DNA of 64,000 nt from a virus: positions 1 through 64,000 of IMG/VR virus record IMGVR_UViG_3300043395_003089, one strand, 5' to 3'. The translations under genes and the position numbers were made by a program. Below, piece after piece: positions 14,911-64,000 of the stretch; position 1 is the first letter of the stretch, and every line of letters begins with the position of its first letter. The notes beneath the pieces are model-generated. The model had not been told where the DNA came from and ran no database searches. It was given only the letters and a program-made list of their open reading frames with translations.

Positions 14911-14911
14911 G

Positions 14912-15154: not shown

Positions 15155-15186
15155 GCTGTCAGCCCAGCGTGGTACATCCCTTGACC

Positions 15187-15402
15187 GTGAGTGGCGATGA
15201 CGATTTCAAGCCGTGTCGTGACGAGGAGTGCACGATCGAGCGCTTGCATCCAGCCCATCGCGACGTCGAGCGATGCCCGAGCTGCCAGGAACCCGTGATC
15301 AAGCTCAACCGCTTGCTGACCGTGTGCTCCAAGTGCACGTGGCGCTCGCAACGCAAGATGGCTCGTCGCGCCTCTACCAGAAAGACCAACGCGCATGCGT
15401 GA
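15187..15402 (+). CDS. small Zn-finger protein
   Basis: CRDEEC..HPAH plus two CxxC; GTG start 8 nt after the 23-bp motif. Confidence 0.5.
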   Translation: MSGDDDFKPCRDEECTIERLHPAHRDVERCPSCQEPVIKLNRLLTVCSKCTWRSQRKMARRASTRKTNAHA

Positions 15403-16327: not shown

Positions 16328-16374
16328 CCCGGCCTTTAGGGGGGCCATCGTCACGTTAGAAAGGCCAGCGTCAA

Positions 16375-50226: not shown

Positions 50227-50604
50227 TTAGCGCTCCGGTGTCACGTGCGCGCGGAGCTCGACGATCGCGAGATCGCCGTTGCCGAGCCCGACGCCAGTGA
50301 CGCGCAGCGAGCGCGCTGTCGCCGTGTTGAACTTGCCGGCGATCGTCGAGGCTGCCGTCGACTGGATGACCGGCGTGATGAGCAACGAGAAAAGCCCCGT
50401 GCCCGGCGCCGCTGCCCAGATCGTGTTGTCGGTGATCGCTTCGAGGAGCTGCTTGAGCAAGCTTGGCCCCGGGCCTGCTGTCGCGGCATCGGTGATGAGC
50501 TGCGTTTGCAGCACGTCGCCCACCAACGAGCCCGAGCCATCGTAGGCGTACTCGTATTTGAGGGCGTTGGGGGTCGCGGACTTGAGGGTCATTGTTGCAG
50601 CCAT
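50227..50604 (-). CDS. putative virion protein
   Basis: Thr/Ala/Gly-rich; TGGTAGGGT box 6 nt upstream. Confidence 0.5.
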   Translation of the reverse strand: MAATMTLKSATPNALKYEYAYDGSGSLVGDVLQTQLITDAATAGPGPSLLKQLLEAITDNTIWAAAPGTGLFSLLITPVIQSTAASTIAGKFNTATARSLRVTGVGLGNGDLAIVELRAHVTPER

Positions 50605-50643
50605 GGCCTGACCCTACCACAATAGGCTGACGCGTTGTCAGCC

Positions 50644-51543
50644 CTACGCGGGCGCAGGGTTCAGCCACGTCAGGAGCGTCAACGTATCGCAGCCGACGAT
50701 GCCATCGGCCGAAAGCCCATAGCAGCTCTGGACGTCTTTGATCCGCGCCTCGGTCGCTGGGCCAAAGTCTCCGTCGATAGCGAGCTTGCCCGCGCGAGCT
50801 TGGATCCATTTGACCATCTCGCCGGTCGCGCCGCGCTTCACGAGATTGATCGTGTTGGTGTCGACGGCGCCCGGCGAGAATCCGGGCATCCCGAGCGCGT
50901 CGCCCGCGTACTGGTAGATCAACCACTGGTTGCCCCACGCCGGGATGTACGTCGGATGCGCCGGCATGCCGGTGAAGCGCACGGGCTGACCAACATCCCA
51001 GAGCCACGGCTTGGCGAGCCAGAGTGGGCAGTTGATCAACTTGCCGGGCGCGTGGTTCTTGAGAACTTCATTCCATACGCGTGCACTCGTGTACATGCCG
51101 GGCCATGCGCCGTAGTACAGGCGCAACGCGATCGCGGCTTCGAGGATCCACGCGAAGTATTGATCCGACGAGAGCACATCGGATTCCTGTTCGACGTCGA
51201 AGAACGGCACCATGTTGCGCGCGGGCGAGCCGAGCACCGGAGCTTTCAGCTCGGCGCCAACGTAATCAATGAAGGCCTTGACCTGTTCTTTCGGGCTCGG
51301 AACATTCGGCGCTTTCTTCGTCGGTACGGTGATGAAGATGTAGGCGCTGCGGTTGAGCCCAGCGGCGAGGATCGTCGCCTTGTCGCGGTCCCAGTAGCTG
51401 TCTCGAATCGGCGCCGTGAAGCCACCGAAGATCGCGCGCGGGATGATGAGGCGTGTACCGACGGCCTTCGCCTGCGTTAGCCCTGCGACGGTTAACGCTT
51501 TGATCGTGTCGGTGTTCGCGTAATCGACGCCGAATTGGGTCAT
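50644..51543 (-). CDS. endolysin: GH25-like muramidase plus C-terminal peptidoglycan-binding domain
   Basis: FGVDY, FFDVE, GMYTS, PLWLA, YQY; DGDFGPATE..GLSADGIVG. Confidence 0.85.
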   Translation of the reverse strand: MTQFGVDYANTDTIKALTVAGLTQAKAVGTRLIIPRAIFGGFTAPIRDSYWDRDKATILAAGLNRSAYIFITVPTKKAPNVPSPKEQVKAFIDYVGAELKAPVLGSPARNMVPFFDVEQESDVLSSDQYFAWILEAAIALRLYYGAWPGMYTSARVWNEVLKNHAPGKLINCPLWLAKPWLWDVGQPVRFTGMPAHPTYIPAWGNQWLIYQYAGDALGMPGFSPGAVDTNTINLVKRGATGEMVKWIQARAGKLAIDGDFGPATEARIKDVQSCYGLSADGIVGCDTLTLLTWLNPAPA

Positions 51544-51872
51544 GGCTTGATCTCCTCGATATCGAGGATCTCGTTGAGCTTGGGGAACGCTGGATCGATC
51601 TTGTCGAACGAGTCGAGCACGTGCTGTTGCGGGGGCCCGAGCTTGGAGAGCTGCAACGCGAGGTTCGTGACAGCCGCTTGCTGTTCGAGCTCGTCTTGCA
51701 TCGCGCGCACGTAGGCCTCTTGCGCGCGGCGCCGGATCTTGTCGATCTTGGCCTTGGCGTCATCGCTCGACGTGTCGCCTTGGAGCGCGTGCCAGAGGAA
51801 GCGTACGAGCTCCTCGCCACCATCGATGAACAGGCGAAGGATCTGGGGATCGATTTCGGGCCAGCCTGACAT
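51540..51872 (-). CDS. hypothetical protein coupled to the endolysin
   Basis: ATGA overlap; TGGTAGGCT box upstream. Confidence 0.55.
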   Translation of the reverse strand: MSGWPEIDPQILRLFIDGGEELVRFLWHALQGDTSSDDAKAKIDKIRRRAQEAYVRAMQDELEQQAAVTNLALQLSKLGPPQQHVLDSFDKIDPAFPKLNEILDIEEIKP

Positions 51873-51897
51873 GCTGTCAGCCTACCACGTAGATACG

Positions 51898-52929
51898 CTA
51901 GCTCGCGTAGAGGACGAATTCGATGACGTCGTTCGAGACAAGCGCATTGGACGGCTCGGCGATGAATGCCGTCGTCGAACGCGAACCCTTGGGACAATCC
52001 CAGCCAACGATCGAAGCGACACCCGCGTTGGTTGGCTGCACAGCGTAGTTGGTGTTCGCGACAGCGGCCATCGTGACAGTGAGCCGTGTCTCGCCGCCAG
52101 TCGCCGTGATCGCGACGACGCGTTGCACGCTCGGGAGGTTCGCGCTCGCCGTGATCGTGTTGCCAGCAACGCCGAACGAGATGCTGTTGCTGTTCGAGAA
52201 CACGACTTCGCCGTTGGTTGCACGCGTGGTGCCGCCCGAGATCGACTTGATCGCTGCAAACGTCGCCGTCAGCGTCTGTGCGTTGAGCCCGAACGAGATG
52301 TTGTTCGAGTTGCTGAAGATGACCGCGCCCGTCGTCGCGACTTCGGTTCCGGCGCTGATCGCGACACCCGTCGCCGTGCCACCGACGGTCTGCACGCTTG
52401 CCGTGATCGTGTTACCGTTCATGCCAAACGTCACGCCGTTGCCGTTGAGGAAGCTGACGGTTGGTCCGGTTGCCGTCGAGCCCAGCGCGATTACGCTGCG
52501 GAACGCGTCACCGGACATCGTCATCTGCGAGCTGCCCGAGAGCCCGAACGAGTAGCCGTTCGAGTTGCTGAACACGACGGTGCCAGTCGCTGCGGTTTGT
52601 GTACCGCCTGCGAGCGCGACGCCCGCGCCCGCGCCCGAACCGCCGCCCGCACCTTGCATGATAAACGGTAGGGCTGTGATGCCACCGGGCGGCTCGGCGT
52701 CTTCGATCGAGTGCCAGAGCTCGACGGCGGCATCGACGGCCGCTTGACCGCTTGGCGTTCGCTCGATGGTCAGGTTGGACGCATCGACCGAGACGTTGAA
52801 TCCGCCACCGTTGAGCCAGACATTGTCCGGCGCCAGTGGCAACGCGTTGCGATTCAGGCTGTGGGCTTGCGAAGCGGTGACCCCGATCGCAAGGCCGGTG
52901 AACCGCAGGACGTTTTTGAGGATTGACAC
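51898..52929 (-). CDS. fibre-like protein with VVFSNSNxxSFG repeats
   Basis: Four ~38-aa repeats shared with 59259-60554. Confidence 0.7.
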   Translation of the reverse strand: MSILKNVLRFTGLAIGVTASQAHSLNRNALPLAPDNVWLNGGGFNVSVDASNLTIERTPSGQAAVDAAVELWHSIEDAEPPGGITALPFIMQGAGGGSGAGAGVALAGGTQTAATGTVVFSNSNGYSFGLSGSSQMTMSGDAFRSVIALGSTATGPTVSFLNGNGVTFGMNGNTITASVQTVGGTATGVAISAGTEVATTGAVIFSNSNNISFGLNAQTLTATFAAIKSISGGTTRATNGEVVFSNSNSISFGVAGNTITASANLPSVQRVVAITATGGETRLTVTMAAVANTNYAVQPTNAGVASIVGWDCPKGSRSTTAFIAEPSNALVSNDVIEFVLYAS

Positions 52930-52961
52930 GAAACGACGATATCACATCGTCGAAACGCGGC

Positions 52962-53801
52962 CTACGCAGCCTTGAAGCGCTTGGCGTATTGCTCCATGCA
53001 AGCCCGCAGCGCCGTCGAGACCGGGCGCATCTCGACGCCTAGGGCTGACAGCCGCGTGTTTTGCAAGATGCAATTCGAGCGACCCTTAGAGATCAGGCCT
53101 AGGGACAAGAGCTTGTCGCTGGAGATCCATTCGTTGGTGTGCGTCGGGTCGACGAGCTGCTCGTAGAGAGCAATCAAGTCGCGGTGCCGCATGGCGCCAT
53201 CGTTGACGGCATGGAACACGCCTGTCGCCTGTTGCTCGACGATCGCTTGCACCGCGCGCACGAGATCATCGATCACTGTCACCGAGTTTTCGACATCGAT
53301 GATCTTGGGGTAGCCCGCGAGCTTGGTGATCAGGTTGCGGGGCCCTGGGATGCTGTCGATCGGCATGCGTAGCCGTACGACCGCGACGTTATCGAGATCC
53401 GACAACACGATGTCGCTCGCATACTTCGAGCGCGAGTAGAACGCCGACGGGTTCGCGTGATCGGTTTCGTGCCAGCCCTTGGGGTCCGGCGACTGCCCGT
53501 AGAAAATACAGCCCGAGCTAAGGTGCGTCAGATGGATATCAAGCTCGGCACAAGCGTCCGCGAGCACGAGCGCGCCGATCGTGTTCGAGCGCATCGTGAT
53601 CGTCTTGTTCGCTTCGCACCAGTCGACGTTCGGTAGCCCGGTCTTGCCCGCTGCGTTGATGACGGCTCGCGGCTCGTGGTAGCGCAGCAACGTCGTCATG
53701 AAATTGCGATCGCTGATGTCCTGCGAGATCAAGCGAGCGTCGGGAATCACCGACGCTAGCTTGTGGCCCAGAAACCCGGCGCCGAAGATCAAGACGGTCA
53801 T
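52962..53801 (-). CDS. NDP-4-keto-6-deoxyglucose epimerase/reductase (NRS/ER / RmlD-like SDR)
   Basis: IFGAGFLG, NAAGKTGLPNVDWCE, SSGCIF, YSRSK, LRMPI. Confidence 0.85.
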   Translation of the reverse strand: MTVLIFGAGFLGHKLASVIPDARLISQDISDRNFMTTLLRYHEPRAVINAAGKTGLPNVDWCEANKTITMRSNTIGALVLADACAELDIHLTHLSSGCIFYGQSPDPKGWHETDHANPSAFYSRSKYASDIVLSDLDNVAVVRLRMPIDSIPGPRNLITKLAGYPKIIDVENSVTVIDDLVRAVQAIVEQQATGVFHAVNDGAMRHRDLIALYEQLVDPTHTNEWISSDKLLSLGLISKGRSNCILQNTRLSALGVEMRPVSTALRACMEQYAKRFKAA

Positions 53802-54271
53802 TCGTTGTTGTCCCGCGATTGCCCGTAGCGTGGCGAGATACCAAAGGAGACGCCACTCACTCCTGAATAAACGATCGCGCTTGTCACCGTTGCCGCTGGA
53901 CGCGTCGCTGCCTCGACCGGCTTGTTCGCGAACACGACTTCCGCTGTTGGCGGCGCGAGCGCTTTCGCCGCGTCTTCCTCGTCACGCTTGCGCCTTGCAA
54001 TCGCCGCTCGTGCAAGCAACTCGCTCGCGCGTTCGAGCATCTCCTCCGAGCAGTCGCCAAGCTCGGCACTCGCGATGATCTTGAGCAGCCGCTCCTCGTC
54101 AGCCTTGCGCGCTTTTTCGTAGGCCTGTGCGATCGCCTGTAGGATGGGCTCGACGATGGTTTCTACTTCGTGGCGTCGGTTGGTAGCCTGCGAGTTATAT
54201 TCGGTGATGCGGCTCGCTCGAAGCGAGAGCACCATATCGACTACCGAGAAGACATCGAGCTCCAACTTCAC
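53798..54271 (-). CDS. coiled-coil hypothetical protein
   Basis: Translationally coupled on both sides. Confidence 0.45.
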   Translation of the reverse strand: MKLELDVFSVVDMVLSLRASRITEYNSQATNRRHEVETIVEPILQAIAQAYEKARKADEERLLKIIASAELGDCSEEMLERASELLARAAIARRKRDEEDAAKALAPPTAEVVFANKPVEAATRPAATVTSAIVYSGVSGVSFGISPRYGQSRDNNE

Positions 54272-54903
54272 GGCTTGATCGCTTTCATGAACGCATGGAA
54301 GTCGATCGCCGTGTTCCAGTAGTTGCGCAGCTCGCGCTGCGCGACCTGCGGATGCTTGGTGTTGAGCACCGAATCGACGGTGGTCTGTACGTTGACATCG
54401 AAGTCGCACTTGACGTTGTAGTGATCGAGCAACTGGCTCTTGCGCCACGCGGCCGAGAAATATGCGAACGTCTCTTCGACGAAGAACCGGCGATGCGTCG
54501 GGTCTTGAAATGCGCGGTTGCTACGCCCGGCTGGCACGATCACCGTGAACAAGCCGCCCGGCACGAGCACGCGCCACGCCTCGTCCATGAAGCGAAACAG
54601 TGCATCTTGGCCACCGTGAGCGACAGGCTGACCACGTTCGTCGACATGCACCATCGGGATGTGCTCGGCGAAGTGACTGCTACGCAGCTCGGCGATCGAG
54701 CTGTCCGCAAACGGCCACGGATACGTCATCAGATCGACGACATGTTGCGCGCCCTCCCAGATGTCGACGCCCTCGAAGCCTTCGCGTGGGCGTTGACCGC
54801 ACGCGAGATCGAGCTTGCGCCCGGATGGTGACGCGGCGATCACTGGTGCAGCCGTGTTTGCGGCACGAGCAAGTGTCTTAGCCAACTTGGATTTCTTTTT
54901 CAC
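54268..54903 (-). CDS. SAM-dependent methyltransferase (type 11-like)
   Basis: KLDLACG, WPFADSS, HFAEHI, RVLVPGG, DPTH. Confidence 0.85.
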   Translation of the reverse strand: MKKKSKLAKTLARAANTAAPVIAASPSGRKLDLACGQRPREGFEGVDIWEGAQHVVDLMTYPWPFADSSIAELRSSHFAEHIPMVHVDERGQPVAHGGQDALFRFMDEAWRVLVPGGLFTVIVPAGRSNRAFQDPTHRRFFVEETFAYFSAAWRKSQLLDHYNVKCDFDVNVQTTVDSVLNTKHPQVAQRELRNYWNTAIDFHAFMKAIKP

Positions 54904-54914
54904 GGTGATTTTCC

Positions 54915-55718
54915 TCAGTAGATGATGCCGGTCGCGAGATCGAGATGGCCGACGACCACTCGAAAGTCGACGGCGAAGCGCTTACCCTTCGAGCGCGCGT
55001 TCTTGCAGAAGTAGAGATCTTGCGTGAACGCGATCGGGCTACCGTCGACGACGTCAGCGACGGTGACGAACCAAGGCGGTTCGAGCTGACGGAACAACTC
55101 CATACGATAGAGCGAGCAGCCCATCGCGATGCCGTTCACCTCCATCACATGGCCCTTGGCCTGCGCCTCGCGCACATCGCGTGGCCTGAAGTCGAGCACG
55201 CCAGTTCGCGCGTACTCCTCGGGGTCGCCGTACGCCATCGGCATGTTGATGTCGCCTTTGGTGTAGTAGATCCCAGACACGCCGTCATAGGGCCCAGCTT
55301 CGATCGTCTGTAGGAGCTTGATGTGCGCGTCGGGCGGCTGGAGGTTGTCGGTTTCCATCGTCATGATGTACTTCCACTTCGACAGCTCCGGGTCGGCGAG
55401 TACCTGTTGGATCACTCGCGTATATGCAACACCGACTTCATCGCCGGTCGCGAACAGCATCGCGCGCTTCTGATTCATCGGCGCCATCAGACCCTGCCAC
55501 GTCTGTTGGACGCGCAGATCGACCATCGTGTCTCGTGCTGGGACGATGATCACCGTCGAGTTGTCTTTGTAGGTCGAGCCCGGAAGATGCGTGACGCGCT
55601 CGAAGCCAAGGCCCTCGAAGGAGCCGATATCGACTTGGCCCTTGGGGGGCAGATGATATCGAACACCGTGAGGCGTTGACGCGGGCTGAGGCTTTCCAGC
55701 CGGCTTCTTTTTCTTCAC
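54915..55718 (-). CDS. GT-A fold (GT2-like) glycosyltransferase
   Basis: YIMTMETDN (DxD-like), AMGCSL, QDLYFC, VGHL. Confidence 0.7.
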   Translation of the reverse strand: MKKKKPAGKPQPASTPHGVRYHLPPKGQVDIGSFEGLGFERVTHLPGSTYKDNSTVIIVPARDTMVDLRVQQTWQGLMAPMNQKRAMLFATGDEVGVAYTRVIQQVLADPELSKWKYIMTMETDNLQPPDAHIKLLQTIEAGPYDGVSGIYYTKGDINMPMAYGDPEEYARTGVLDFRPRDVREAQAKGHVMEVNGIAMGCSLYRMELFRQLEPPWFVTVADVVDGSPIAFTQDLYFCKNARSKGKRFAVDFRVVVGHLDLATGIIY

Positions 55719-55748
55719 GCAGCGGACGCTACCACGCTGCTCTGCCAG

Positions 55749-57467
55749 CTACTTCGCGGCCCAACCCGTGTTCCCGGTGCCCGATTCCTTGATGTACATC
55801 GAAGTGCCGGCGCCGCCGTCGAGACGCAGAAACTGGGACCCGATTCGTGCCGTGACGTTGCTCTCTGGGTCACCGTTGCCGGCGATGATCTGCGGGCCGA
55901 ACGTGCACGCGTTCGAGGCGATGCGAACGTAGACACCCGCTGGCATCGAGAACGCGGCGACCGAGGCATTGATCGCCACACCCGCGACCATCAAGAAATC
56001 GGTGAACGCTGCCGCGTTGGGGCCGTCGAAGTTGACGCCGGTCGCGACCGCATCGAACGTGCCGCCCGTCACTTGAATCGCGCCGATGTTCGCGCCGTTC
56101 GACAGCACGTGCACGCCATTCGCCCAGGTGCCAGCGTCTGCGGCGATCAAGCTGTTCGAGACCTGGATGTTATCGGCGACGACGGCAACCGCCTCGATCA
56201 AGATCGCGTCGGCAACGGAAGCCCCCGCGTCGGCGACGAGCGGAACGTTCGCCTGGATCTGCGTCGTGTGACAGTCGAGCGCATGCAGAAGCCCGGACGT
56301 CGCGCCCGTCGTGTCTTGGATCCAGTGGTTTCGTTGGACCTGGACCTGCGAACAGGTATCGAGCTTGACGATGAGGCCATCGGCGCAAGTCGACGCACGC
56401 GAGACGATGTTGCCTTGCACCTGCGAGTTGGTGGTGTCCTCGACGGTGATGCAGGCATCGGTGATCGCGGCGACCGAACACACGATCTGGTTGTGCTGCA
56501 ATTGCAGCTTGGTCGCGTCAGCGATCGCGACAAAGCCCGAGATGTCGTTGATCGCGATCGACACACGTTCCAGAATCGCCGTCGAGCCCAGCTTGATGGC
56601 ACACTTGGTCGCGTTCGTGATCCGGTTGCCGATGATCTTGATGTCGGCGATGTCCTCGCCGACGGTGTCTTCGATCAAGATCGTATTGTCTTCGGCCGTC
56701 GTGTTGATGACGTCCGAATCGATGATCCACACCGTGCTGACGTTGCCGTCGAGCCAGATGTTCGGCCCACCAGCGTCGCGCATGTCACAGCCGTCGATCC
56801 ACACGACATCGACTGGATCAGCCGTGCCGCCCATGAACACGTAGGCACCCGCGTTCGCGACGCCACCCGTGTAGCGGCAGTTGATGAACTTGACGATCGA
56901 CGCCTCGATCACGTTGATCAGATGGCACTGATTCGCGCCGACGTTCGAGAGCCCAGATTGATCGAACGTCAAGAGCTCGAATTCGGTCGAGTTGGAGCCA
57001 CCGTCGATCCTGAACAGGTTGTAGGCGCCGCCGCCAGCGCTGCCGGATTGCTTGAGCGTCGATCCCTGCCAGCCCGTGCCGAGGAAGCGCACGTTGTCAA
57101 TATTGTCGAGCAGAAACGAATACGGGTTCGCGCCGTTCTTGCCGCACAAGTACGTGCCGGGCGGAAAGTACACCGTCCCGCCGATCACGGCCGCATCGTC
57201 GATCGCGAGTTGGATCGCTGCGCGATCGTCGGTCACGCCGTCGCCGGTTGCGCCATAGTCCTTGACGTTGAAGTAGATGCCGGTCGGAACGAGCGTCCAC
57301 GCGGTGTCGCCTGCACCGGTCTTGGTGTAGTCGCCAGCTGTCCCAGAGCGCCAATACTTACTGCCGACCGCCGCCGCGATGCCCGCGCCAGCTGTCGGAT
57401 CGACGGTGTCGGAGATGAGATCGACGGTGTTGAGCTTGCCGCGAACGAAGGAAAGTGTTTTGGACAT
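55749..57467 (-). CDS. spike/receptor-binding protein with pectate-lyase-like beta-helix
   Basis: FNVKDYGATGDGVTDDRAAIQ..VYFPPGTY followed by parallel beta-helix repeats. Confidence 0.85.
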   Translation of the reverse strand: MSKTLSFVRGKLNTVDLISDTVDPTAGAGIAAAVGSKYWRSGTAGDYTKTGAGDTAWTLVPTGIYFNVKDYGATGDGVTDDRAAIQLAIDDAAVIGGTVYFPPGTYLCGKNGANPYSFLLDNIDNVRFLGTGWQGSTLKQSGSAGGGAYNLFRIDGGSNSTEFELLTFDQSGLSNVGANQCHLINVIEASIVKFINCRYTGGVANAGAYVFMGGTADPVDVVWIDGCDMRDAGGPNIWLDGNVSTVWIIDSDVINTTAEDNTILIEDTVGEDIADIKIIGNRITNATKCAIKLGSTAILERVSIAINDISGFVAIADATKLQLQHNQIVCSVAAITDACITVEDTTNSQVQGNIVSRASTCADGLIVKLDTCSQVQVQRNHWIQDTTGATSGLLHALDCHTTQIQANVPLVADAGASVADAILIEAVAVVADNIQVSNSLIAADAGTWANGVHVLSNGANIGAIQVTGGTFDAVATGVNFDGPNAAAFTDFLMVAGVAINASVAAFSMPAGVYVRIASNACTFGPQIIAGNGDPESNVTARIGSQFLRLDGGAGTSMYIKESGTGNTGWAAK

Positions 57468-57477
57468 CGCTTAGCTC

Positions 57478-59262
57478 CTACTTGGCATCCCAACCCGTGT
57501 TGCCGCCGCTGTCGCCTTCCTTGACGTAGAGCGTGGTGCCAGCGCCGCCGCCGGTCGAGCGAAGGCCGTACGAGCCGATCGCAGCATCGACGACGCCCGC
57601 GGGGTCGACCTGGAGTTGATAGATCGTTGGCCCAAGATCGGTGCCGGTGCCGTCGATCGGAATCGACGTCAGCGGCGCGTTCAAGACCACTGCGCCGACG
57701 TTGGCATCCGCGAACACGTTGCGGCCGAACACCGATGCATCGGTGACCTGCGAGAGTCGCGCACCGCGTTGCGTGTGCCGAATGAAGTTGTCGGTGCAGC
57801 TCACCGGGCCACAGTCGAAACCGGTCGCACCAACAATAATCGCGTTCTCGAACCGTGCGTCAATACCGATGCCCATATTGGCCGTGACCGCGAGATCGAA
57901 GATGTCACGGTTGTTGGCGATGAATTGCGTCGCTTGGCCATTGTCGGCGGGGAATTCGAGGCGGATTAGGTTCGCGACGATGAGCCCGCGACGGACATCC
58001 TGATATGACACACCTGCGCCGTCGCTCGCGCCCGACAGGTTTTGCACGATGTTGCTATCGGTGACGATGCCCTCGACGTCGCCATCGCCACCGAGATTCG
58101 CGACGTCGACCATCAATACAGTCGACGTGTTGCCGTCGACGTAGATCTGATTGCAATCGATCACGAGATCGTGCGCGAACTTGAAGAAACTGATCGCGAA
58201 GGCTTCCGAGGCTGCGGGCGGCGAGATGTTGATGTCGACGATGTTTCCGGTGAATAGGAGCCTGGAAATATTGCCGCCCGAGACATTGCCCTCACCAGCT
58301 TGCGAGACACCCTGCATTGTCGTGTTGTGCGCGTAGATCGTATCGGAATGCGACTGGTCATCAGAGCCGTTGCCCGATAGCGTGACCGAGCCCTCGAAGT
58401 GGTTGCGTAGGATGCGCATGCTCGTATTCGAGCCGACGCCCGATGGCTCGAAGTCGACCGGGCCCGCACCCGTGCAGTAGTTCGCGTCGAGCGTGACGTC
58501 GTCGACGGCGCGTTGGAACGAGAAACACGTACGTGACGCAGGCGTGTTGTCCATCTCGAACACGCAGCGCTTGCAGAGAATGTCGCGTACGCGATTCGTG
58601 TTGTTGGCGCCGAGGAAGCGCACGGCGTCGCCACGCGTGTGGCCGAAGTAGCAATCGAGGATGAATGATTGCCCGGTCTCGACGATCACCGAGGCGACCG
58701 TGTTCTCGAAGTGAATCAGGTGTTGCTGCTCGTTCTCGTTGGTGAGCGCCGAGCGCATCATCAGGCTCTTGAAGCCAATGCGCTTGCAGCCCGCGGTCAT
58801 GTTGAACAAGCGACGATCTGTCGAAGTGCCGTTACCTGACATCACGAGCGCGCTCGAACGCCCGCAGCCCATGAACAAGACGCCCGAGCTCGCGGAGCCC
58901 GACATCGTAAAGATGGTGATTCCTGCAACGACGAAACACGCGTACGTGCCCGGCGGGAAGAACACGACACCGCCACCAGCGGCGATCGCTGCATTGATCG
59001 CGAGTTGAATCGCTGCACGATCGTCGGTGACTCCGTCACCGGTCGCCCCGAACGTCTTGACGTTGAAGTACGGCGCACGTAGAAGCTCTTGCGTCCACGA
59101 GGTATCCGTCGAGCCCATCTTGAGCCACGGAATACCGATCGTCTGCTCGTATTGGCTGCCGACGGGAGCGGCGACGCCAGCACCAGCGATCGGGGATGCC
59201 ACACCCGACACGAGATCGAGCGCGTTGAGCCGCGCCCGAATCATGGAGAGTGCCTTGCTCAT
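57478..59262 (-). CDS. second spike/receptor-binding protein with pectate-lyase-like beta-helix
   Basis: FNVKTFGATGDGVTDDRAAIQ..VFFPPGTY; same terminal modules as its neighbour. Confidence 0.85.
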   Translation of the reverse strand: MSKALSMIRARLNALDLVSGVASPIAGAGVAAPVGSQYEQTIGIPWLKMGSTDTSWTQELLRAPYFNVKTFGATGDGVTDDRAAIQLAINAAIAAGGGVVFFPPGTYACFVVAGITIFTMSGSASSGVLFMGCGRSSALVMSGNGTSTDRRLFNMTAGCKRIGFKSLMMRSALTNENEQQHLIHFENTVASVIVETGQSFILDCYFGHTRGDAVRFLGANNTNRVRDILCKRCVFEMDNTPASRTCFSFQRAVDDVTLDANYCTGAGPVDFEPSGVGSNTSMRILRNHFEGSVTLSGNGSDDQSHSDTIYAHNTTMQGVSQAGEGNVSGGNISRLLFTGNIVDINISPPAASEAFAISFFKFAHDLVIDCNQIYVDGNTSTVLMVDVANLGGDGDVEGIVTDSNIVQNLSGASDGAGVSYQDVRRGLIVANLIRLEFPADNGQATQFIANNRDIFDLAVTANMGIGIDARFENAIIVGATGFDCGPVSCTDNFIRHTQRGARLSQVTDASVFGRNVFADANVGAVVLNAPLTSIPIDGTGTDLGPTIYQLQVDPAGVVDAAIGSYGLRSTGGGAGTTLYVKEGDSGGNTGWDAK

Positions 59263-60554
59263 ACGCTTTGCCCGAGCTGAATGATCGGTAAGCTGCCAGC
59301 GGCGATTGCAGTGCCGCGGATATCGCTGAACGCGACCGAGCTCGGAAGCGCGGCGGTTTGCACGCTGAGGAAGCCACGACCAAGATACTCTTGATTGGTC
59401 GCGTTGTTTGCCGCACCGAGGAAGCCCGACAACGCCGAGGCTTGCGTCGCGTCAACTAGAAGCTGACGGAATGACGCGTTCTGACTCGAAAACGTCGAGG
59501 CCGCGAGCACGCCGAACCAGTAGTCGTTTTTGGGCAACGTCGATGACCAAGCACCCGACGTGAGACGGATACCGTTGTTGATCGACGAGTTGACGGTGCC
59601 GCTATGGTTGACCGTGCCCGAGATCGACGACGACATCAGGAGCGAAAGCGTGCTGACGTTCTTGGTGTAAACGCCGAGCTGATAGCTCCACGAGATCGTG
59701 CCGGTCGAGTCGGTCGCGCCCGAGAAGTGCACGAGCGCGTTGAACTGGCTGAACACGACGTTTGGCGCCGTGAGCGGCTGGATGTGCAGCGAGCTTTGTT
59801 GAAGGTTCTGTAGGCCTGCGCTTTGAATCGAGAGCGGATAGAATTGCGAGTGGCTGAACGTGTCGCCGCCGGCTGCGACCGACGCCGTGATCACGTTCGA
59901 GCCGGCCATGCCGAATGTCACGCCGTTGCTGTTGGCGAAGCTCACGGTGCCCGTCGAGACGCTCTGCGTACCCGCGGAAAGCGCGAACGGCGTTTCAGCC
60001 GCGACGCTCGCCGTGATCGTATTGCCGTTGACGCCGAACGACACGCCGGAGCCGTTCGCGAACGAGACGCCCTGTCCGGTCGCGTTCGTCGTGCCGCCCG
60101 AGATCGACTTGATCGCCGCGACTGACGCCGAGGCCGTCATCGTCGCCGAGCCCGCCATGCCGAACGAGACGTTGCCGGCGTTCGAGAACACGACGGTGCC
60201 CGTCGAGACGCTCTGCGTGCCGCCCGAGATCGCGAACGGGGTCTCGGCTGCGACGCTCGCCGTGATCGTCGAGGCGTTCAGCCCAAACGAGACGCCGTTC
60301 GAGTTGCTGAAAACAGCCGTACCCGTGGCCATCGATTGCGTACCCGCGGACAGGCCGATGCCGGCCTCGGGCACCACGCTCGCCGTGATCGTGTTGCCGT
60401 TGATCCCGAACGACACGTTGTTCGAGTTGGCGAAGCTGACGCCCGGTCCGGTGGCGTTGGTCGTGCCTCCCGAGATCGCGGTGATGCCGCCAGCGCCGCC
60501 GCTAGCACCACCAGCGCCCGCGTTTGGGGTAAAGCCATCACAACAGCCGCTCAT
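59259..60554 (-). CDS. fibre-like protein: five repeats plus a C-terminal globular domain
   Basis: xSxGTxxxxxxVxFxNxxxVSFGxxxxTITASV repeats. Confidence 0.75.
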   Translation of the reverse strand: MSGCCDGFTPNAGAGGASGGAGGITAISGGTTNATGPGVSFANSNNVSFGINGNTITASVVPEAGIGLSAGTQSMATGTAVFSNSNGVSFGLNASTITASVAAETPFAISGGTQSVSTGTVVFSNAGNVSFGMAGSATMTASASVAAIKSISGGTTNATGQGVSFANGSGVSFGVNGNTITASVAAETPFALSAGTQSVSTGTVSFANSNGVTFGMAGSNVITASVAAGGDTFSHSQFYPLSIQSAGLQNLQQSSLHIQPLTAPNVVFSQFNALVHFSGATDSTGTISWSYQLGVYTKNVSTLSLLMSSSISGTVNHSGTVNSSINNGIRLTSGAWSSTLPKNDYWFGVLAASTFSSQNASFRQLLVDATQASALSGFLGAANNATNQEYLGRGFLSVQTAALPSSVAFSDIRGTAIAAGSLPIIQLGQSV

Positions 60555-60557
60555 GAT

Positions 60558-61082
60558 TCACCCCAGATATTCGCGTGCGCGAATCGGCCGCGCACGAACC
60601 GTGACGGTCTCGCCGCCGGGGATAGCGATGTCGCCAGCAACGCCGCCGACACTGATGAAGTCGTATAGCGATAGATCGCTGACCATCTCGGTGTAGCCAA
60701 CGAGCTCGCCGCTTCCAACGTTCAAGACGATCGGAATCTGTGGCGCAACACCACCCCGCGCCATCCCGAGCGCACCAAGCAACGTTCGTTGCAAGTTGCC
60801 TGCGGCGTCGACGATCGCGCCGTAGAGGCCGATCTGTTCCGCGAACGTGCCGTTACCGATCACGAGGGCGGCACTCGCCGTGAATTCGAGCGCGAAACAC
60901 GTGTACGGCGATTCGGTCGCGCGACGAAGCGTCTTCCAGACTTCGCAGCTCACGTAACCGCCGTTGGCGCCGCCGAGAGACAGGACGGGCGCGTTGGTGA
61001 GTACGTTCACGACGAGCGACGATTCGTCCCTCCCGACCGAAGGGACGTTGCGCAGAAGCGGAAAGCGGATCGTCTTGCTCAT
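60558..61082 (-). CDS. putative virion beta-sandwich protein
   Basis: Beta-rich composition; lies immediately upstream of the fibre/spike genes. Confidence 0.5.
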   Translation of the reverse strand: MSKTIRFPLLRNVPSVGRDESSLVVNVLTNAPVLSLGGANGGYVSCEVWKTLRRATESPYTCFALEFTASAALVIGNGTFAEQIGLYGAIVDAAGNLQRTLLGALGMARGGVAPQIPIVLNVGSGELVGYTEMVSDLSLYDFISVGGVAGDIAIPGGETVTVRARPIRAREYLG

Positions 61083-61085
61083 CGC

Positions 61086-61643
61086 TTAGCGGCCCTTCTT
61101 TGCCGGCTTGCGGAACTTGGTGAACGCGATCAGGAGCGCGATGCCGCCGCCGATGCCGATGCCGGCTTGCTGCCACTGTGGGAGCTGAGTGAACCAGAGC
61201 CGCGTCTTCATCCACGTGCCGGCGCCAGGTGGCGCTTGGACGTTGAACGCGCCGCGGTCGGGCAACGTGCCACCGCTTGGGGGCCGCACGAGGCTGACCG
61301 TCGCCGCTGGTTGAAGGTCGACGCCGTCTGCTACTTTCGTCAGGAACGTGTTGAGCCCGACGTTGGCTTGCATGACCTTAGTGTGATCGAGCGCGCCGCT
61401 GTCGGTGATCAGCGACGTCAATAGGCTGCGCGCGGTCTCTTTGTCGTTCTGATCGACGCAGAGCTCGACGCCACCATCGCCGTCGACGCAGCCATCGGTG
61501 CCGCCCACCCAACCGAGCGCCCGAAAGACGCCGTTGGACGTCTTGTCGCCCATGCCGCCATCGATCGCGAGCTGCGAGAAGCCGGCCTCGCTGGCGTATC
61601 GATTCAGCGTCGCTTGCAGCTTGGCCAGATTCTCGCTTGCCAT
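61086..61643 (-). CDS. peptidoglycan-binding-like protein with C-terminal membrane anchor
   Basis: LQATLN..LAIDGGMGDKT; TM GIGIGGGIALLIAF followed by a basic tail. Confidence 0.6.
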   Translation of the reverse strand: MASENLAKLQATLNRYASEAGFSQLAIDGGMGDKTSNGVFRALGWVGGTDGCVDGDGGVELCVDQNDKETARSLLTSLITDSGALDHTKVMQANVGLNTFLTKVADGVDLQPAATVSLVRPPSGGTLPDRGAFNVQAPPGAGTWMKTRLWFTQLPQWQQAGIGIGGGIALLIAFTKFRKPAKKGR

Positions 61644-61685
61644 GTTGCTTTGACCCTACCACAACAGCCGGGCTATCTTGCTTGT

Positions 61686-62537
61686 ATGTCAGCCCTACGC
61701 GGTAGCTCTACGGCCTGCTACCCGTATTTTCATGGTCAGTACGCGCCGCTCGCCGCCGGGCCGCAGACGTACATTCGATCGGGATGCAGCGTCGGCAGTA
61801 ACGGCAACGTCAACTGCGACCCCGAAGACATGCGCGCGAACGCCGAGCTGCAACTGGCACAACTCGGCTTCCCTCGCGAGCTGTCACTAGAGACCTACAC
61901 GCTCGCGCGCTACATGCAGGGCGAGGTTGGTAGCGGCACCGTCGAGGAACGCGTCGCCGTCGGTGAAGCCGCCGTCAATCGCGCGAAGCGTGAACGCACG
62001 ACGGTCAACGGGCTGTTGCTGTTTCGCCAGCCACAAGGCCACCCGAACCGCGGATGGTACGGGCCGATCCATGGCGTCGGGACTGGCGTCTCGACGGCGC
62101 CGTACGGCCGATGGGCGACGACAAGCGCCGACCCGACACTCCTGACGTTGCTGCTCGCCGAGCTGGTGATGTCGGGCAAGAGCTACGATTTCTCGCGCGG
62201 CGCCGACGATCAAGATGGGCCCGAGGCCTGGATCGGCCAGGGCCAGGCGTCGCTCGATGGCTACGTGCGGCGGCTCGCGAGCTCGAACAAGTTCTGGGTC
62301 GGGCCGTTGCCCGGCGTCGACCACTGGCACACGTTCCTACAATTCACCGCGGGGCCGTTCGACGACAAGCAAGCGCTCTTGCAACGAGGTCTCGAAGCAC
62401 TCAGCCTGCCGGCGCAGCGCCCGCAATGGCCGGCGGATCTGCCGCTCTGTAGCAAGCCCGCGGGCGGGGCGTTGCTATGGACCGTCGGCGTACTCGCGAC
62501 GATCTTCGGTGGGTGGTGGGCTGCAAATCGAGCCTAG
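61686..62537 (+). CDS. cell-wall hydrolase (SleB/Hydrolase_2-like) with C-terminal membrane anchor
   Basis: YTLARYMQGEVG..ERVAVGEAAVNRA; TM LLWTVGVLATIFGGWW. Confidence 0.6.
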   Translation: MSALRGSSTACYPYFHGQYAPLAAGPQTYIRSGCSVGSNGNVNCDPEDMRANAELQLAQLGFPRELSLETYTLARYMQGEVGSGTVEERVAVGEAAVNRAKRERTTVNGLLLFRQPQGHPNRGWYGPIHGVGTGVSTAPYGRWATTSADPTLLTLLLAELVMSGKSYDFSRGADDQDGPEAWIGQGQASLDGYVRRLASSNKFWVGPLPGVDHWHTFLQFTAGPFDDKQALLQRGLEALSLPAQRPQWPADLPLCSKPAGGALLWTVGVLATIFGGWWAANRA

Positions 62538-62727
62538 TTCGCACGCACTGGAAACGGTGATAGGCTGACAGCTCAGATGAGCAACACGCCCAACAAGTCG
62601 TGCTGCACGCGGCCGATCGTCAGGCCGGCAGTGCCGCCTGCCCGTCCCGCGATTCGACCGGTCGCCCCCAAACCACGCCCGATCCGCCCCCTCGGCACTC
62701 GGCCTGTGCGCTAGTATCGGAGTCACT

Positions 62728-62988
62728 ATGGCAAAGGCATGCACCACTCGTCGCGTCGTCATTCGCAAGAAGCACGGCCGCAAGCTCAAGAGCCCGATCA
62801 CGTTCACGGCACACAAGGGGACCGGATGCCCGAAGCCGCGCCGCTCGACGGGCCACCTGAAGGAGTACAAGCAGATCTTCAGGATCGAGGCGAAGGCTTG
62901 CGCGAAGCGCCAGGGCAAGAACTGGAACCGCAAGACCTACGCGCACTGTATCGGCCAAGGCATGAAGACCGCCTTCAAGAACCGCTAG
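62728..62988 (+). CDS. basic Cys-containing protein (paralogue of 28548-28853)
   Basis: Shared C..I.K+.G+K..TF...G..CPK...ST.HL pattern. Confidence 0.65.
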   Translation: MAKACTTRRVVIRKKHGRKLKSPITFTAHKGTGCPKPRRSTGHLKEYKQIFRIEAKACAKRQGKNWNRKTYAHCIGQGMKTAFKNR

Positions 62989-63084
62989 AGCTGCGCTGGC
63001 TGTTCGTGATCTTCGGGCCGACGTTGCTCGTCATCGTCGGCGTAGCGGTAGCGCTGGTGGCGTGGCTCGGTTAGCGAGCCGCGC

Positions 63085-63327
63085 TCACTTCGAGGCCGAT
63101 GCGTTCGCTACGAGCGCGTCTTTGACGACGACGACGAGCGAGTCTTCCTCGTGTAGCTCGACATGAGGGACGCCACCGGTTCCGGTGATGTCGTCGAGCT
63201 CGGCGTTGATCTCATCGGCGAGCGCGCGGTTGCGCTTGTACGCATCGCAGGCTCGCTTGCCGGCCGCTTGCATCCGATGCGTTGCGACGACGCCCGACTC
63301 CCGTTTGGTGCCGTTCGTGGGGGGCAT
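63085..63327 (-). CDS. hypothetical protein
   Basis: TACAGT box 6 nt before the ATG. Confidence 0.45.
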   Translation of the reverse strand: MPPTNGTKRESGVVATHRMQAAGKRACDAYKRNRALADEINAELDDITGTGGVPHVELHEEDSLVVVVKDALVANASASK

Positions 63328-63371
63328 GGCTCTACTGTAAGCGATCCACGGGCCAAAAAGCGAAGGACGCT

Positions 63372-63749
63372 CTAACGGCGAGGCATCAGGAAGCGCTCGT
63401 AGACCTTGTTGAGCACCTCGGTGTTCGATTGTGCGGTCTTGGTCGCCTCGTCGGCCATGCGATCAACCACATCGGAAAATTCTTTCCTGATCATGTCTTC
63501 GCGCTCTTGCGCCGACTCGCGCAAAGCTTGCAGCTGCCTCGCGTACTCGACGAGCGCAGCGACGTGCTTGGCCTCGTACTCGGCGCGTAGCGACTGCTCC
63601 TTAGCGGCCCACGCGACACGATCGGCTGTGATCTTGTCGTCCTTCGCCTCGGAGCGCTTGTAGAGCGCGAGGATCACGTAAGCGAACACGAACACGAAGA
63701 CGCCGAGGAGCCCGTATTGCAACGCGGTGCTTTTGGCGATCTCTTCCAC
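63372..63749 (-). CDS. single-TM plus coiled-coil protein (BhlA/holin-like)
   Basis: LQYGLLGVFVFVFAYVILALY followed by a coiled coil. Confidence 0.55.
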   Translation of the reverse strand: MEEIAKSTALQYGLLGVFVFVFAYVILALYKRSEAKDDKITADRVAWAAKEQSLRAEYEAKHVAALVEYARQLQALRESAQEREDMIRKEFSDVVDRMADEATKTAQSNTEVLNKVYERFLMPRR

Positions 63750-63787
63750 AGCCCGAGATTACCATCAGGGGGTGACAGCCCGCGATG

Positions 63788-64000
63788 TTAGCGATTGGCC
63801 AGATGCGCCGACGCCAGGATCTCGTGGATTTGCTGGTCGTCTAGAGCGCCTTCGAGCTTCACCGGGCGCCGGTTGCGCGTCAGGAGTAGCGTCGTCGGTA
63901 CGGCTTGGATCTCGTACTGATCGGCGAGCCCGACCACGCTCGGATCTTCGCTCGATGCATCGAGCATGAGCACCGGGATCATGCGTGGCGGTACTTGGCC
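63788..64000 (-). CDS. thioredoxin-fold protein (C-terminal part; runs off the window)
   Basis: LADQYEIQAVPTTLLL..LEGA cis-Pro motif. Confidence 0.6.
   Translation of the reverse strand, partial: GQVPPRMIPVLMLDASSEDPSVVGLADQYEIQAVPTTLLLTRNRRPVKLEGALDDQQIHEILASAHLANR

Follow-up and report, generated by a model that had tools for sequence, protein, structure and literature searches.

What kind of particle is made by a virus that carries fibres, spikes and an endolysin, and in which no tail gene can be recognised? This question is raised by positions 50227-64000 of a contig from a freshwater metagenome, the first 64,000 nucleotides of which (the window) had been read from the sequence alone. 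That sequence-only reading proposed a large, tailless, membrane-containing virus of the PRD1 type, with a PolA-based replication module. The contig totals 89,167 bp, so the sequence next to the window is readable, and the flanks were searched in the whole contig and in four complete relatives.

The genome and its relatives

CheckV estimates the completeness of the 89-kb contig at 86% and calls it linear; its first 127 bp are found again 246 bp before its end, and the core genes are all present. In the four complete relatives (85-138 kb), the ends overlap by 90-127 bp, so that each assembles as a circle. No description of such a virus was found in a literature search.

Spikes, fibres and lysis genes

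The genes at 50.2-64 kb are as follows:

50644-51543 (-): endolysin, a GH25 muramidase
51898-52929 (-): fibre protein 1
52962-53801 (-): RmlD-like NAD-dependent sugar reductase/epimerase
54268-54903 (-): methyltransferase-like protein
54915-55718 (-): possible GT2-like glycosyltransferase
55749-57467 (-): spike 1
57478-59262 (-): spike 2
59259-60554 (-): fibre protein 2
60558-61082 (-): 174-aa conserved protein adjoining the fibres
61086-61643 (-): tail-anchored membrane protein
61686-62537 (+): conserved tail-anchored 283-aa protein
63372-63749 (-): small protein with an N-terminal transmembrane (TM) segment and a coiled coil
63788-64000 in the window, full gene 63788-64141 (-): thioredoxin-like protein

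The fibres, spikes and endolysin of the sequence-only reading are all borne out, the endolysin and both spikes by Pfam and PHROG matches and the two fibres by the repeats read in their sequences. The endolysin combines Glyco_hydro_25 (E 3.6e-8) with a C-terminal PG_binding_1 domain (E 2.6e-9), a combination indicating a bacterial host with peptidoglycan, and also matches seven endolysin PHROGs. Both spikes match Pect-lyase_RHGA_epim (E 2.4e-16 and 2.5e-13, respectively) and tail-spike PHROGs, with 13 tail-spike or depolymerase PHROGs for spike 2. Spike 1 consists of an N-terminal adapter of about 60 aa, a pectate-lyase-type beta-helix and a C-terminal module of about 50 aa that is shared with its paralogue, spike 2; the two are 37% identical in the first 210 aa and 52% identical in the last 50. 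Fibre protein 1 is built from repeats of about 30 residues (...GTVVFSNSNGVSFGLNG.TITASV...) and takes variable forms in the relatives. Fibre protein 2 shares this repeat and is a paralogue (48% identity over 165 aa); neither fibre has a match in PHROG or Pfam. The 174-aa protein, also without a match in either, is 33-43% identical in five related loci and may be a vertex or adapter protein.

Sugar enzymes lie between these genes. The reductase/epimerase matches RmlD_sub_bind (E 5.8e-22) and Epimerase (E 2.3e-13). The methyltransferase-like protein matches phrog_6636 (E 2.3e-11) and nothing in Pfam, and has 52-55% identity in three relatives (G001, G005 and L003). The glycosyltransferase assignment is a weak one, from phrog_1574 (E 9e-9) and the glycosyltransferase phrog_12406 (E 4e-4), with Glycos_transf_2 (E 0.009) below the Pfam cut-off.

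The endolysin, spikes and fibres support both a viral nature and a bacterial host. A plasmid or other mobile element carrying phage-like lysis, depolymerase and replication genes would be compatible with the circular assembly of the relatives, with the tyrosine recombinase kept in all five genomes (the contig and the four complete relatives) and with the failure of sequence searches to detect a classical virion hallmark. It seems extremely improbable, however, given that no scanned ORF of at least 140 aa matches a relaxase, type IV secretion or partition protein, that the endolysin, the repeat fibres, both beta-helix spikes and a pair of conserved jelly-roll proteins (described below) amount to a virion-like block, and that the family is found almost wholly on free contigs of 40-220 kb, from metagenomes and viromes.

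Predicted jelly-roll proteins beyond the window

A conserved block, termed here the shell block, starts at the end of the window and spans 63.8-87 kb in the same numbering. Its first gene encodes the thioredoxin-like protein, a core gene of the family with 39-45% identity in all four complete relatives; its matches to Thioredoxin_2 (E 2e-5) and Thioredoxin (E 3.5e-4) fall slightly below the Pfam cut-off. The other genes relevant here are:

65763-66260 (-): 165-aa jelly-roll protein (predicted model and fold matches)
67002-67706 (-): 234-aa jelly-roll protein, capsid candidate (predicted model and fold matches)
67885-68526 (-): Gly/Ala-rich membrane protein
72372-73061 (-): membrane-anchored transglutaminase-like protein (Transglut_core; protease)
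75968-76225 (+): small anchor protein with the N-terminal peptide of the capsid candidate
81929-84094 (-): 721-aa low-complexity coiled-coil protein

The two jelly-roll genes sit 2-4 kb beyond the end of the window, amid some twelve small membrane proteins with tail anchors, and both products are modelled confidently as single jelly rolls (pLDDT 86.9 for the 234-aa and 93.1 for the 165-aa protein). The 234-aa protein is the most conserved gene product of the family. When the 1,000 best PDB chains from Foldseek were examined a second time, its first four matches were Sulfolobus polyhedral virus 1 (SPV1; Z 8.3 over 142 aligned residues, 3.6 A), HHIV-2 (Z 7.4), P23-77 (Z 6.8) and SH1 (Z 6.7). Each is a capsid protein with a single jelly roll, from an icosahedral virus that contains a membrane. 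The best structural matches of the 165-aa protein are capsid proteins of algal giant viruses, SPV1 (Z 6.9) and HHIV-2. Values of Z 7-8 are middling by the search tool's own scale, and cement proteins, fibre tips and non-viral jelly rolls were also matched, just 1-2 Z units lower. Profile searches gave no sequence link to any PDB chain, and profile comparison with VP16 or VP17 of P23-77 gave no similarity (probability below 1%). The nonapeptide VGVAPGTTT is common to the N-terminus of the capsid candidate and the small anchor protein, both here and in relative G003.

These middling matches, with PHM and GOLD domains, nucleoplasmin and Ena fibres within 1-2 Z of the capsids, would also suit a virus with another particle, enveloped, pleomorphic or of unknown architecture, in which the jelly rolls are spikes, nucleoplasmin-like chaperones or matrix proteins; the numerous membrane proteins and the failure to find a packaging ATPase (see below) point the same way. 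Such a particle nevertheless seems unlikely, because the top four matches of the 234-aa protein are capsids of one architectural class and because its extreme conservation and abundance suit a major shell protein. In addition, the neighbouring 165-aa and 234-aa genes mirror the P23-77 pair, VP16 (173 aa) and VP17 (291 aa), as well as VP10/VP4 of SPV1 (PMC8459092). The most likely arrangement, with moderate confidence, is a tailless shell in which two small jelly-roll proteins enclose an inner membrane.

Membrane-anchored proteins

The many C-terminal TM anchors of the sequence-only reading are real at the level of a crude hydropathy script, which found 14 single anchors clustered at 61-80 kb. 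Only two of them (61086 and 61686) lie inside 50-64 kb; the majority are past the window at 70-80 kb, where 10 of 20 genes encode a TM segment. It is these many TM proteins that suggest an inner membrane.

The protein at 61086 ends in a TM segment and a basic tail. By eye, its N-terminal head resembles PG_binding_1, as had been proposed; it has no Pfam match, and its family profile reaches E 0.15-0.3 against the peptidoglycan-binding domains of an endolysin and a D-Ala-D-Ala carboxypeptidase in the PDB, so this resemblance is weak. The 283-aa protein has a C-terminal TM segment, a start set at 61686 by a database copy of the same length, and 45-87% identity in relatives; the gene is real. It had been called SleB-like from a motif seen by eye, a label that finds no profile support: the protein and five relatives have no Pfam match (Hydrolase_2 included) and no PDB profile match, and none of its best 120 homologues has a precomputed Pfam domain. 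The small TM protein at 63372-63749 has no Pfam match either.

Replication genes and the search for tailed-phage hallmarks

The replication and recombination genes lie in the first part of the window:

6220-8859 (-): SF3/VapE-like replicative helicase, with an intein
13849-16902 (+): recombination set of PD-(D/E)XK nuclease, Sak4-like AAA_24 ATPase and DUF669 protein
17920-22788 (+): family A DNA polymerase, with two inteins

The polymerase (phrog_17, E 9e-64, plus a LAGLIDADG PHROG) confirms the proposed PolA-based module. Comparison with an intein-free homologue in G001 places its inteins at residues 96-442 and 1044-1281, each ending in HN and followed by Cys. The helicase matches Pfam Hint and LAGLIDADG; its intein (7132-8172) lies within the Walker A loop, with the boundaries GAGK/C...HN/T, and an intein-free homologue in the Atlas has DUF5906/VapE features and TM-scores of 0.7-0.8 to Toprim-fused primase-helicases. 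The recombination set matches PDDEXK_1 (E 4.5e-8), AAA_24 (E 5e-5, full length) and DUF669 (E 2e-9), with phrog_124 (E 6e-20) for the ATPase. Together with SNF2 and UvrD helicases, these proteins make up the replication kit of the family.

Six-frame Pfam searches of the contig and the four complete relatives, in each of which positive controls matched, revealed no Terminase_6N, TerL_ATPase, Terminase_3, Phage_portal, SPP1_portal or Phage_capsid. As the sequence-only reading had stated, PHROG and Pfam scans found no terminase, portal, HK97 capsid, tail tube or tape measure among the ORFs covered (every ORF of at least 300 aa and most of at least 140 aa, about 50 ORFs, all below 270 aa, being left out). 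Matches to a "terminase large subunit" PHROG at 6220-8859 and 9519-12128 are to inteins (Hint and LAGLIDADG), and neither is a terminase. The genes above 250 aa that are common to all five genomes encode replication or recombination proteins or the tyrosine recombinase, except for the 721-aa coiled-coil protein, and there is thus no common gene left for a portal, large terminase or HK97 capsid.

A very divergent tailed phage (Duplodnaviria), with hallmark genes missed by profiles and jelly rolls serving in decoration, cement or receptor binding, would account for the tail-spike PHROGs that match the spikes, for a replication module of a type common among tailed phages and for the presence in the fold lists of tailed-phage fibre domains and jelly-roll cement proteins (Z 5-6.6). 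Most neighbouring protein clusters in the Atlas are also labelled "Uroviricota", although these labels are automatic. This explanation seems very unlikely, given that the six Pfam families are absent in all frames of five genomes, that the large ORFs have no hallmark PHROG match and that the unexplained genes common to the five genomes, bar the coiled-coil gene, are all of 250 aa or less. In phages, conservation is normally highest in the large terminase, whereas here it is highest in the 234-aa jelly roll.

An FtsK/A32 packaging ATPase was also searched for, and not found. There are just two conserved P-loop proteins, the SF3/VapE-like helicase and the Sak4-like AAA_24 protein, both of replication or recombination. 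The latter was rejected as a packaging ATPase: its alignment with the P23-77 ATPase is limited to the P-loop, and its gene adjoins those of the DUF669 protein and the PD-(D/E)XK nuclease. The flanking sequence thus provided the jelly rolls and no terminase, portal or HK97 capsid, as expected of a large tailless virus, but not the ATPase.

Comparison with known viruses

Tectiviridae and other PRD1-like viruses lack a tail and have an inner membrane; their entry proteins are muralytic and membrane-associated, and spikes stand at their vertices. The 15-kb linear genome of PRD1 itself encodes one double-jelly-roll capsid protein, a protein-primed PolB and P9, an ATPase of the FtsK/A32 type. In the virus described here, each of the two shell candidates (165 and 234 aa) has a single jelly roll, the polymerase is of family A and the genome is six-fold larger, and the PRD1-type assignment is not upheld: no double jelly roll, FtsK/A32 ATPase or protein-primed PolB was found. 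The FtsK/A32 ATPase is a hallmark of both PRD1-like and sphaerolipo-like viruses, so the particle cannot simply be filed with either.

Members of the Sphaerolipoviridae, Simuloviridae and Matshushitaviridae (HHIV-2, HCIV-1, SH1, P23-77; kingdom Helvetiavirae; PMC12643093) rank second to fourth among the matches of the 234-aa protein and head the Foldseek list of the 165-aa protein, and P23-77 likewise has genes for a virion-associated lysozyme and a transglycosylase. Their genomes, however, are of 16-31 kb, as opposed to 89 kb, with a conserved A32-type packaging ATPase beside the capsid genes (PMC12643093), gene order is different, and replication in the present virus is PolA-based instead of protein-primed or Rep-based.

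SPV1 (Portogloboviridae) builds its capsid from two single-jelly-roll proteins, VP4 and VP10, with hexamers from one and pentamers from the other. Inside the capsid is a lipid layer with sub-capsomer proteins; the vertices carry complexes, and the circular dsDNA genome is stored as a nucleoprotein core (PMC8459092). The 234-aa protein matches SPV1 (PDB 6OJ0) best, and the 165-aa protein has it among its high matches; the relatives of the present virus also assemble as circles, and a packaging ATPase was not found here. No sequence similarity to SPV1 was found, and SPV1 has a 20-kb genome and a hyperthermophilic archaeal host, whereas the virus described here has 89 kb, a PolA replisome of its own and a peptidoglycan-directed endolysin, which indicates a bacterial host.

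Proposed particle

It is fairly probable that 50.2-64 kb is a host-recognition, entry and lysis block, and that it belongs to a particle, known from its genes alone, with a tailless icosahedral jelly-roll shell over an inner membrane. The 234-aa and 165-aa proteins would form this shell, over a protein-rich membrane, and its vertices would carry the beta-helix spikes and repeat fibres, by which surface polysaccharide may be bound or cut. The interleaved sugar enzymes may modify the fibres or the host surface. At entry, tail-anchored proteins with putative wall-binding heads (61086, 61686 and 74469) would attack peptidoglycan from the viral membrane, and progeny would be released by the soluble GH25 endolysin. 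Since nothing was recognisable as a packaging motor, it may be that the DNA is condensed with protein and enclosed in this state, in the manner of SPV1, and is not pumped in; this step is the most speculative of all.

The family is widespread and uncultured, with genomes of 85-138 kb, and its member of about 89 kb is a dsDNA virus of a bacterium. This virus would be unusually large, tailless and probably membrane-containing; to our knowledge, a jelly-roll shell over an inner membrane has so far been seen only in viruses several times smaller.

The spike, fibre and lysis block

The window makes up bases 1-64,000 of a contig of 89,167 bp (G+C content 62%, no tRNA genes) that is catalogued as a virus and derives from a freshwater metagenome; a codon-bias script called 141 genes on it. 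What the sequence-only reading observed is for the most part correct, and its inference of a large tailless, membrane-containing virus of the PRD1 type is partly supported: the results are consistent with a large tailless virus with candidate jelly-roll shell proteins, a PolA replisome and, probably, a membrane, and they argue against the PRD1 type. All but two of the genes in 50227-64000 lie on the minus strand, and the main features of this stretch are listed below (positions beyond 64000 continue the contig numbering).

50644-51543: endolysin with GH25 and PG_binding_1 domains (PHROG and Pfam)
51898-52929: fibre protein 1, with a repeat of ~30 residues; paralogue of 59259-60554
55749-57467: spike 1, with an adapter of ~60 residues, a pectate-lyase-type beta-helix and a C-terminal module common to both spikes
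57478-59262: spike 2, likewise with an adapter of ~60 residues, a pectate-lyase-type beta-helix and the common C-terminal module; paralogue of 55749-57467
59259-60554: fibre protein 2, with a repeat of ~30 residues; paralogue of 51898-52929
61086-61643: tail-anchored protein with a weak peptidoglycan-binding-like head (E 0.15-0.3) and a C-terminal anchor according to the hydropathy script
61686-62537, plus strand: conserved tail-anchored protein of 283 aa
63788-64141: thioredoxin-like protein, just under the Pfam cut-offs, kept in all four complete relatives

The spikes, fibres and endolysin noticed in the sequence were recovered with PHROG, Pfam and paralogue comparisons as two spikes, two fibres and one endolysin, and the GH25 and PG_binding_1 domains of the endolysin indicate that the host is a bacterium with peptidoglycan. 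The genes between the spikes and fibres encode an RmlD-like sugar reductase, a methyltransferase-like protein and, with weak support, a GT2-like protein (PHROG and Pfam). Amid these sugar enzymes, a 157-aa protein (53798-54271) has one copy of the fibre repeat at its end (...VYSGVSGVSFGISP...) and in this resembles a truncated fibre or an adapter. The set of spikes and fibres differs from relative to relative; receptor-binding genes are usually variable between relatives. The protein at 61086, described as peptidoglycan-binding-like, retains its C-terminal anchor, its head being a weak match, whereas the SleB-like hydrolase proposed at 61686 received no profile support in the protein itself, five relatives, PDB or its 120 best homologues, and only its tail anchor and conservation stand.

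The search for tailed-phage hallmarks

PHROG or Pfam scans of every ORF of at least 300 aa and most ORFs of at least 140 aa on the whole contig yielded no capsid, portal, terminase, tube, sheath, tape measure or baseplate. Six-frame searches of five genomes (the contig and four complete relatives of 85-138 kb), all with positive controls, gave no match to the Pfam HK97-fold capsid profile (Phage_capsid), to Phage_portal or SPP1_portal, or to the large terminase profiles Terminase_6N, TerL_ATPase and Terminase_3. No scanned ORF matched a capsid or portal PHROG. In these searches the absence of terminase, portal, HK97 and tail genes of tailed phages (Caudoviricetes, Duplodnaviria) noted in the window extends to the whole contig, and that of terminase, portal and capsid to the four relatives, the HK97 capsid being judged by sequence profile and protein size. 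For the size argument, the four relatives were taken whole and all their genes compared with the contig. The common genes of more than 250 aa encode PolA, an SF3-type helicase, an SNF2 helicase, a PD-(D/E)XK nuclease, a Sak4-like ATPase, a tyrosine recombinase and a low-complexity coiled-coil protein (650-720 aa in the five genomes), and no other conserved unexplained ORF of 250-700 aa was found in these genomes. The proteins kept in all five genomes also include those at 60558-61082, 65358-65717, 66377-66718, 68764-69219, 78323-79006, 81929-84094, 84168-84695 and 85768-86148. Given these sizes and identities, no common gene is left over for a portal, a large terminase or an HK97 capsid.

Three of the replication genes carry inteins, four in all, and their homologues in the related genome G001 lack all four:

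6220-8859: SF3-type helicase, one intein (residues 221-567) inside the Walker A loop (GVMGAGK/C...HN/TS)
9519-12128: SNF2 helicase, one intein (about residues 115-458)
17920-22788: PolA, two inteins (residues 96-442 and 1044-1281)

The PHROG 'terminase large subunit' matches at 6220-8859 fall on the intein inserted in the Walker A loop, and those at 9519-12128 likewise fall on an intein; neither gene is retained as a terminase. A 502-aa P-loop protein found only in the related genome G003 is a DNA helicase. The DNA polymerase belongs to family A (phrog_17, E 9e-64), which bears out the PolA-based replication module that had been recognized from the sequence. Neither the exteins of the SF3-type helicase alone nor its intein-free form had a Pfam or PDB match; its identity was taken from the intein-free G001 homologue, which has Atlas feature matches to DUF5906/VapE and Atlas TM-scores of 0.7-0.8 against the helicase halves of Toprim primase-helicases. 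Nothing significant came from searching PDB sequences with the 413-aa protein, the 682-aa protein or the Sak4-like profile.

Two jelly-roll proteins as capsid candidates

The family's most conserved gene lies three kilobases beyond the end of the window and encodes a 234-aa protein (67002-67706), 62-87% identical in related loci and up to 95% identical in its best database homologues. It has 460 homologues (126 clusters at 50% identity), on contigs of up to 60-220 kb. None of 59 family members matched a PHROG, and the family profile had no match among PDB sequences. Its AlphaFold model is confident and all-beta (pLDDT 86.9, pTM 0.79). In an all-against-representatives structural search, this model matched best the capsid protein of Sulfolobus polyhedral virus 1 (SPV1; Z 8.0), then those of HHIV-2 (7.1) and HCIV-1 (6.6), while VP17 of P23-77 reached 6.0. 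Among Foldseek's best 1,000 PDB chains, SPV1 was again the top match (Z 8.3 over 142 residues, 3.6 A), followed by HHIV-2 (7.4), P23-77 (6.8) and SH1 (6.7). Each of these last four builds the shell of a tailless, inner-membrane virus and has a single jelly roll.

A second protein, of 165 aa (65763-66260; 299 homologues), is also confidently modelled as a jelly roll (pLDDT 93, pTM 0.86). Its best matches are capsid proteins (EhV-201, Z 7.9; PBCV-1, 7.3; SPV1, 6.9; HHIV-2 and HCIV-1, 6.8), the top Foldseek chains being those of HHIV-2. Profile comparison detected no homology between the two families, nor any similarity of either to VP16/VP17 of P23-77. The Z values lie in the range that the tool calls 'middling', with non-capsid jelly rolls just 1-2 units below. 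The models support the jelly-roll fold of both proteins well, and a capsid role may be inferred for both: capsid proteins are enriched among the highest-ranking matches, the genes are conserved, a small jelly-roll gene is paired with a large one, and no other candidate shell gene was found. Double-jelly-roll capsid proteins match both models only partially, over one of their two barrels; each model is a single jelly roll. An Atlas lead from the 234-aa protein to the PM2 capsid domains P2_N/P2_C was weak (0.76-0.77) and was set aside because this score is under the tool's trusted level.

A 42-codon ORF at 64151-64279 (locus coordinates L001:2151-2279) contains 17 residues that are 65% identical to a core strand of the 234-aa protein (WEMYIYGIGI region), and also matches the capsid genes of the related genomes G001, G003 and G004 by tblastn. 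This ORF may be what is left of a second copy of the capsid gene.

Membrane proteins

The hydropathy script found an uncharged hydrophobic 17-mer in 30 of the 141 proteins, a few of them false positives within enzymes. The C-terminal transmembrane anchors remarked upon in the window were confirmed by this script: in 14 proteins a single C-terminal anchor precedes a basic tail, and these proteins cluster at 61-80 kb. Three further proteins of the region are as follows.

67885-68526: Gly/Ala-rich hydrophobic protein, directly upstream of the capsid candidate and kept in 15 related loci
72372-73061: conserved transglutaminase-core protein with an N-terminal anchor
74469-74912: protein with a weak PG_binding_1 head and a putative anchor (hydrophobic C-terminal stretch by eye; segment placed mid-protein by the script)

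An 85-aa anchor protein (75968-76225; L002:3968-4225) contains VGVAPGTTT, a nonapeptide of the N-terminus of the capsid candidate, and this pairing of anchor protein and capsid candidate recurs in G003. A 65-aa ORF (76922-77119; L002:4922-5119) is 97% identical to the C-terminal 65 residues of the 75968-76225 protein and lacks the N-terminal capsid-like arm. The many small tail-anchored proteins predicted in the structural block point indirectly to a probable inner membrane.

Packaging

The flanking sequence, in which a jelly-roll capsid and an FtsK/A32-type packaging ATPase were to be sought against terminase, portal and HK97, provided two predicted single jelly rolls past the window, none of the tailed-phage genes and no ATPase of this type. 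Pox_A32 had no match, no FtsK/HerA/A32 ATPase was found, and FtsK_SpoIIIE matched only the P-loop of one relative's Sak4-like gene, with 12 bits. Conserved P-loop proteins are limited to the SF3 helicase and the Sak4-like protein (15395-16327). The latter was considered as a hidden packaging ATPase and rejected, as AAA_24 matches it over its full length and its neighbours are those of a recombination set: the gene is flanked by a PD-(D/E)XK nuclease and a DUF669 protein, and these three form a standard recombination set. In an hhalign comparison of the Sak4-like family with the P23-77 ATPase, only 22 columns aligned, covering the P-loop alone. Small basic proteins are also encoded here:

62728-62988: small basic protein
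68563-68742: small basic protein

Genome form, relatives and distribution

Positions 1-127 of the window are an exact direct repeat of contig positions 88795-88921; this second copy lies 246 bp before the contig end, and the final 246 bp diverge after it. The repeat resembles the k-mer overlap that an assembler leaves on a circular molecule, here followed by a strain variant. All four complete relatives have overlapping ends (90-127 bp) and therefore assemble as circles. CheckV estimated the completeness of the contig at 86%, yet it has all the genes common to the four complete relatives, and the length of its junction region is not below expectation. The 35-49 kb block is mostly without counterpart in the relatives and reads as accessory; it includes a DNA methyltransferase-like protein (42046-42828; phrog_9133, E 5e-45). 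The tyrosine recombinase (38613-39566; Phage_integrase, E 8e-19) is kept in all five genomes at 36-44% identity, and may serve in circular dimer resolution or in integration.

Neither megablast with 50227-64000 nor tblastn with the proteins of 959, 721 and 234 aa matched any of 50,697 phage records, and no published description of the family was found in the literature searched. The sequencing runs listed included no RNA holder. In a set of 185,579 genomes, the capsid-candidate gene has close relatives on just three MAG contigs, all of them short. The labels of the MAG contigs with close relatives (Actinomycetes, Polyangiales and Woesearchaeota) are mixed, indicating binning noise. The capsid profile matched 2 of 400 other Myxococcota genomes and none of 400 other Actinomycetota genomes, too few for a host to be named. 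A 92.7-kb contig of a Myxococcota MAG (G355:C152; L048-L051) holds a distant relative of the family, which may be integrated or a binned free genome, with homologues of the capsid candidate, the transglutaminase-like protein, the SNF2 helicase and the recombinase at 23-30% identity.

Comparison with known viruses

The results speak against the PRD1 type: the polymerase is of family A, whereas Tectiviridae such as PRD1 (Bamfordvirae) have a protein-primed family B DNA polymerase, and no FtsK/HerA/A32 ATPase, a defining feature of PRD1-like and sphaerolipo-like viruses, was found. Each of the two capsid candidates is modelled as one jelly roll. The closest known architectures are those of SPV1 and of the sphaerolipovirus/P23-77 group. 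Helvetiavirae-type viruses (Sphaerolipoviridae, Matshushitaviridae, Simuloviridae) have two vertical single-jelly-roll major capsid proteins and an internal lipid membrane. Their capsid proteins are among the best matches of both jelly-roll models (Z 6-8), without sequence-profile similarity; the A32/FtsK packaging ATPase of those viruses was not found here. In respect of packaging, the virus seems to work more like SPV1, where a nucleocapsid protein packs the circular dsDNA into a coiled core within membrane and shell (PMC8459092): no ATPase was found and the relatives assemble as circles. SPV1 has single-jelly-roll proteins for hexamers (VP4) and for pentons (VP10), and VP4 gives the best fold match to the model of the 234-aa protein (Z 8.0-8.3). 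The virus belongs to neither SPV1 nor the sphaerolipovirus/P23-77 group by sequence, genome size and host, and is further separated from the latter group by the ATPase.

Implications

A bolder proposal, which we consider rather unlikely as a whole, is that the family is a new lineage of high rank, made up of large viruses of bacteria (genomes of 85-138 kb or more), in which two small single-jelly-roll proteins would form a shell of high T number over an inner membrane. The genome would be pre-condensed and would enter without a packaging motor, the conserved 700-aa coiled-coil protein would set facet length, as tape-measure proteins do in giant eukaryotic viruses, and maturation of the particle would rely on thioredoxin-like disulfide chemistry and on a membrane-anchored protease. 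To our knowledge, the genomes of tailless membrane-containing jelly-roll viruses of prokaryotes have so far been of about 10-45 kb, and this small size is taken as a limit of the jelly-roll/membrane design. If the family is indeed tailless, with a membrane and a jelly-roll shell, its genomes of 85-138 kb and its frequent occurrence in metagenomes from freshwater, sludge and soil would lift this limit for bacteria. The family has a PolA replisome of its own and several inteins, and no packaging motor could be recognised in it. It would also reveal a large blind spot in virome surveys, where big phage-like contigs default to tailed phages. The family would, finally, provide a bacterial system for asking what sets the size of a big jelly-roll shell and how such a shell is filled, a question that, as far as we know, could until now be addressed only with giant eukaryotic viruses and one archaeal virus.
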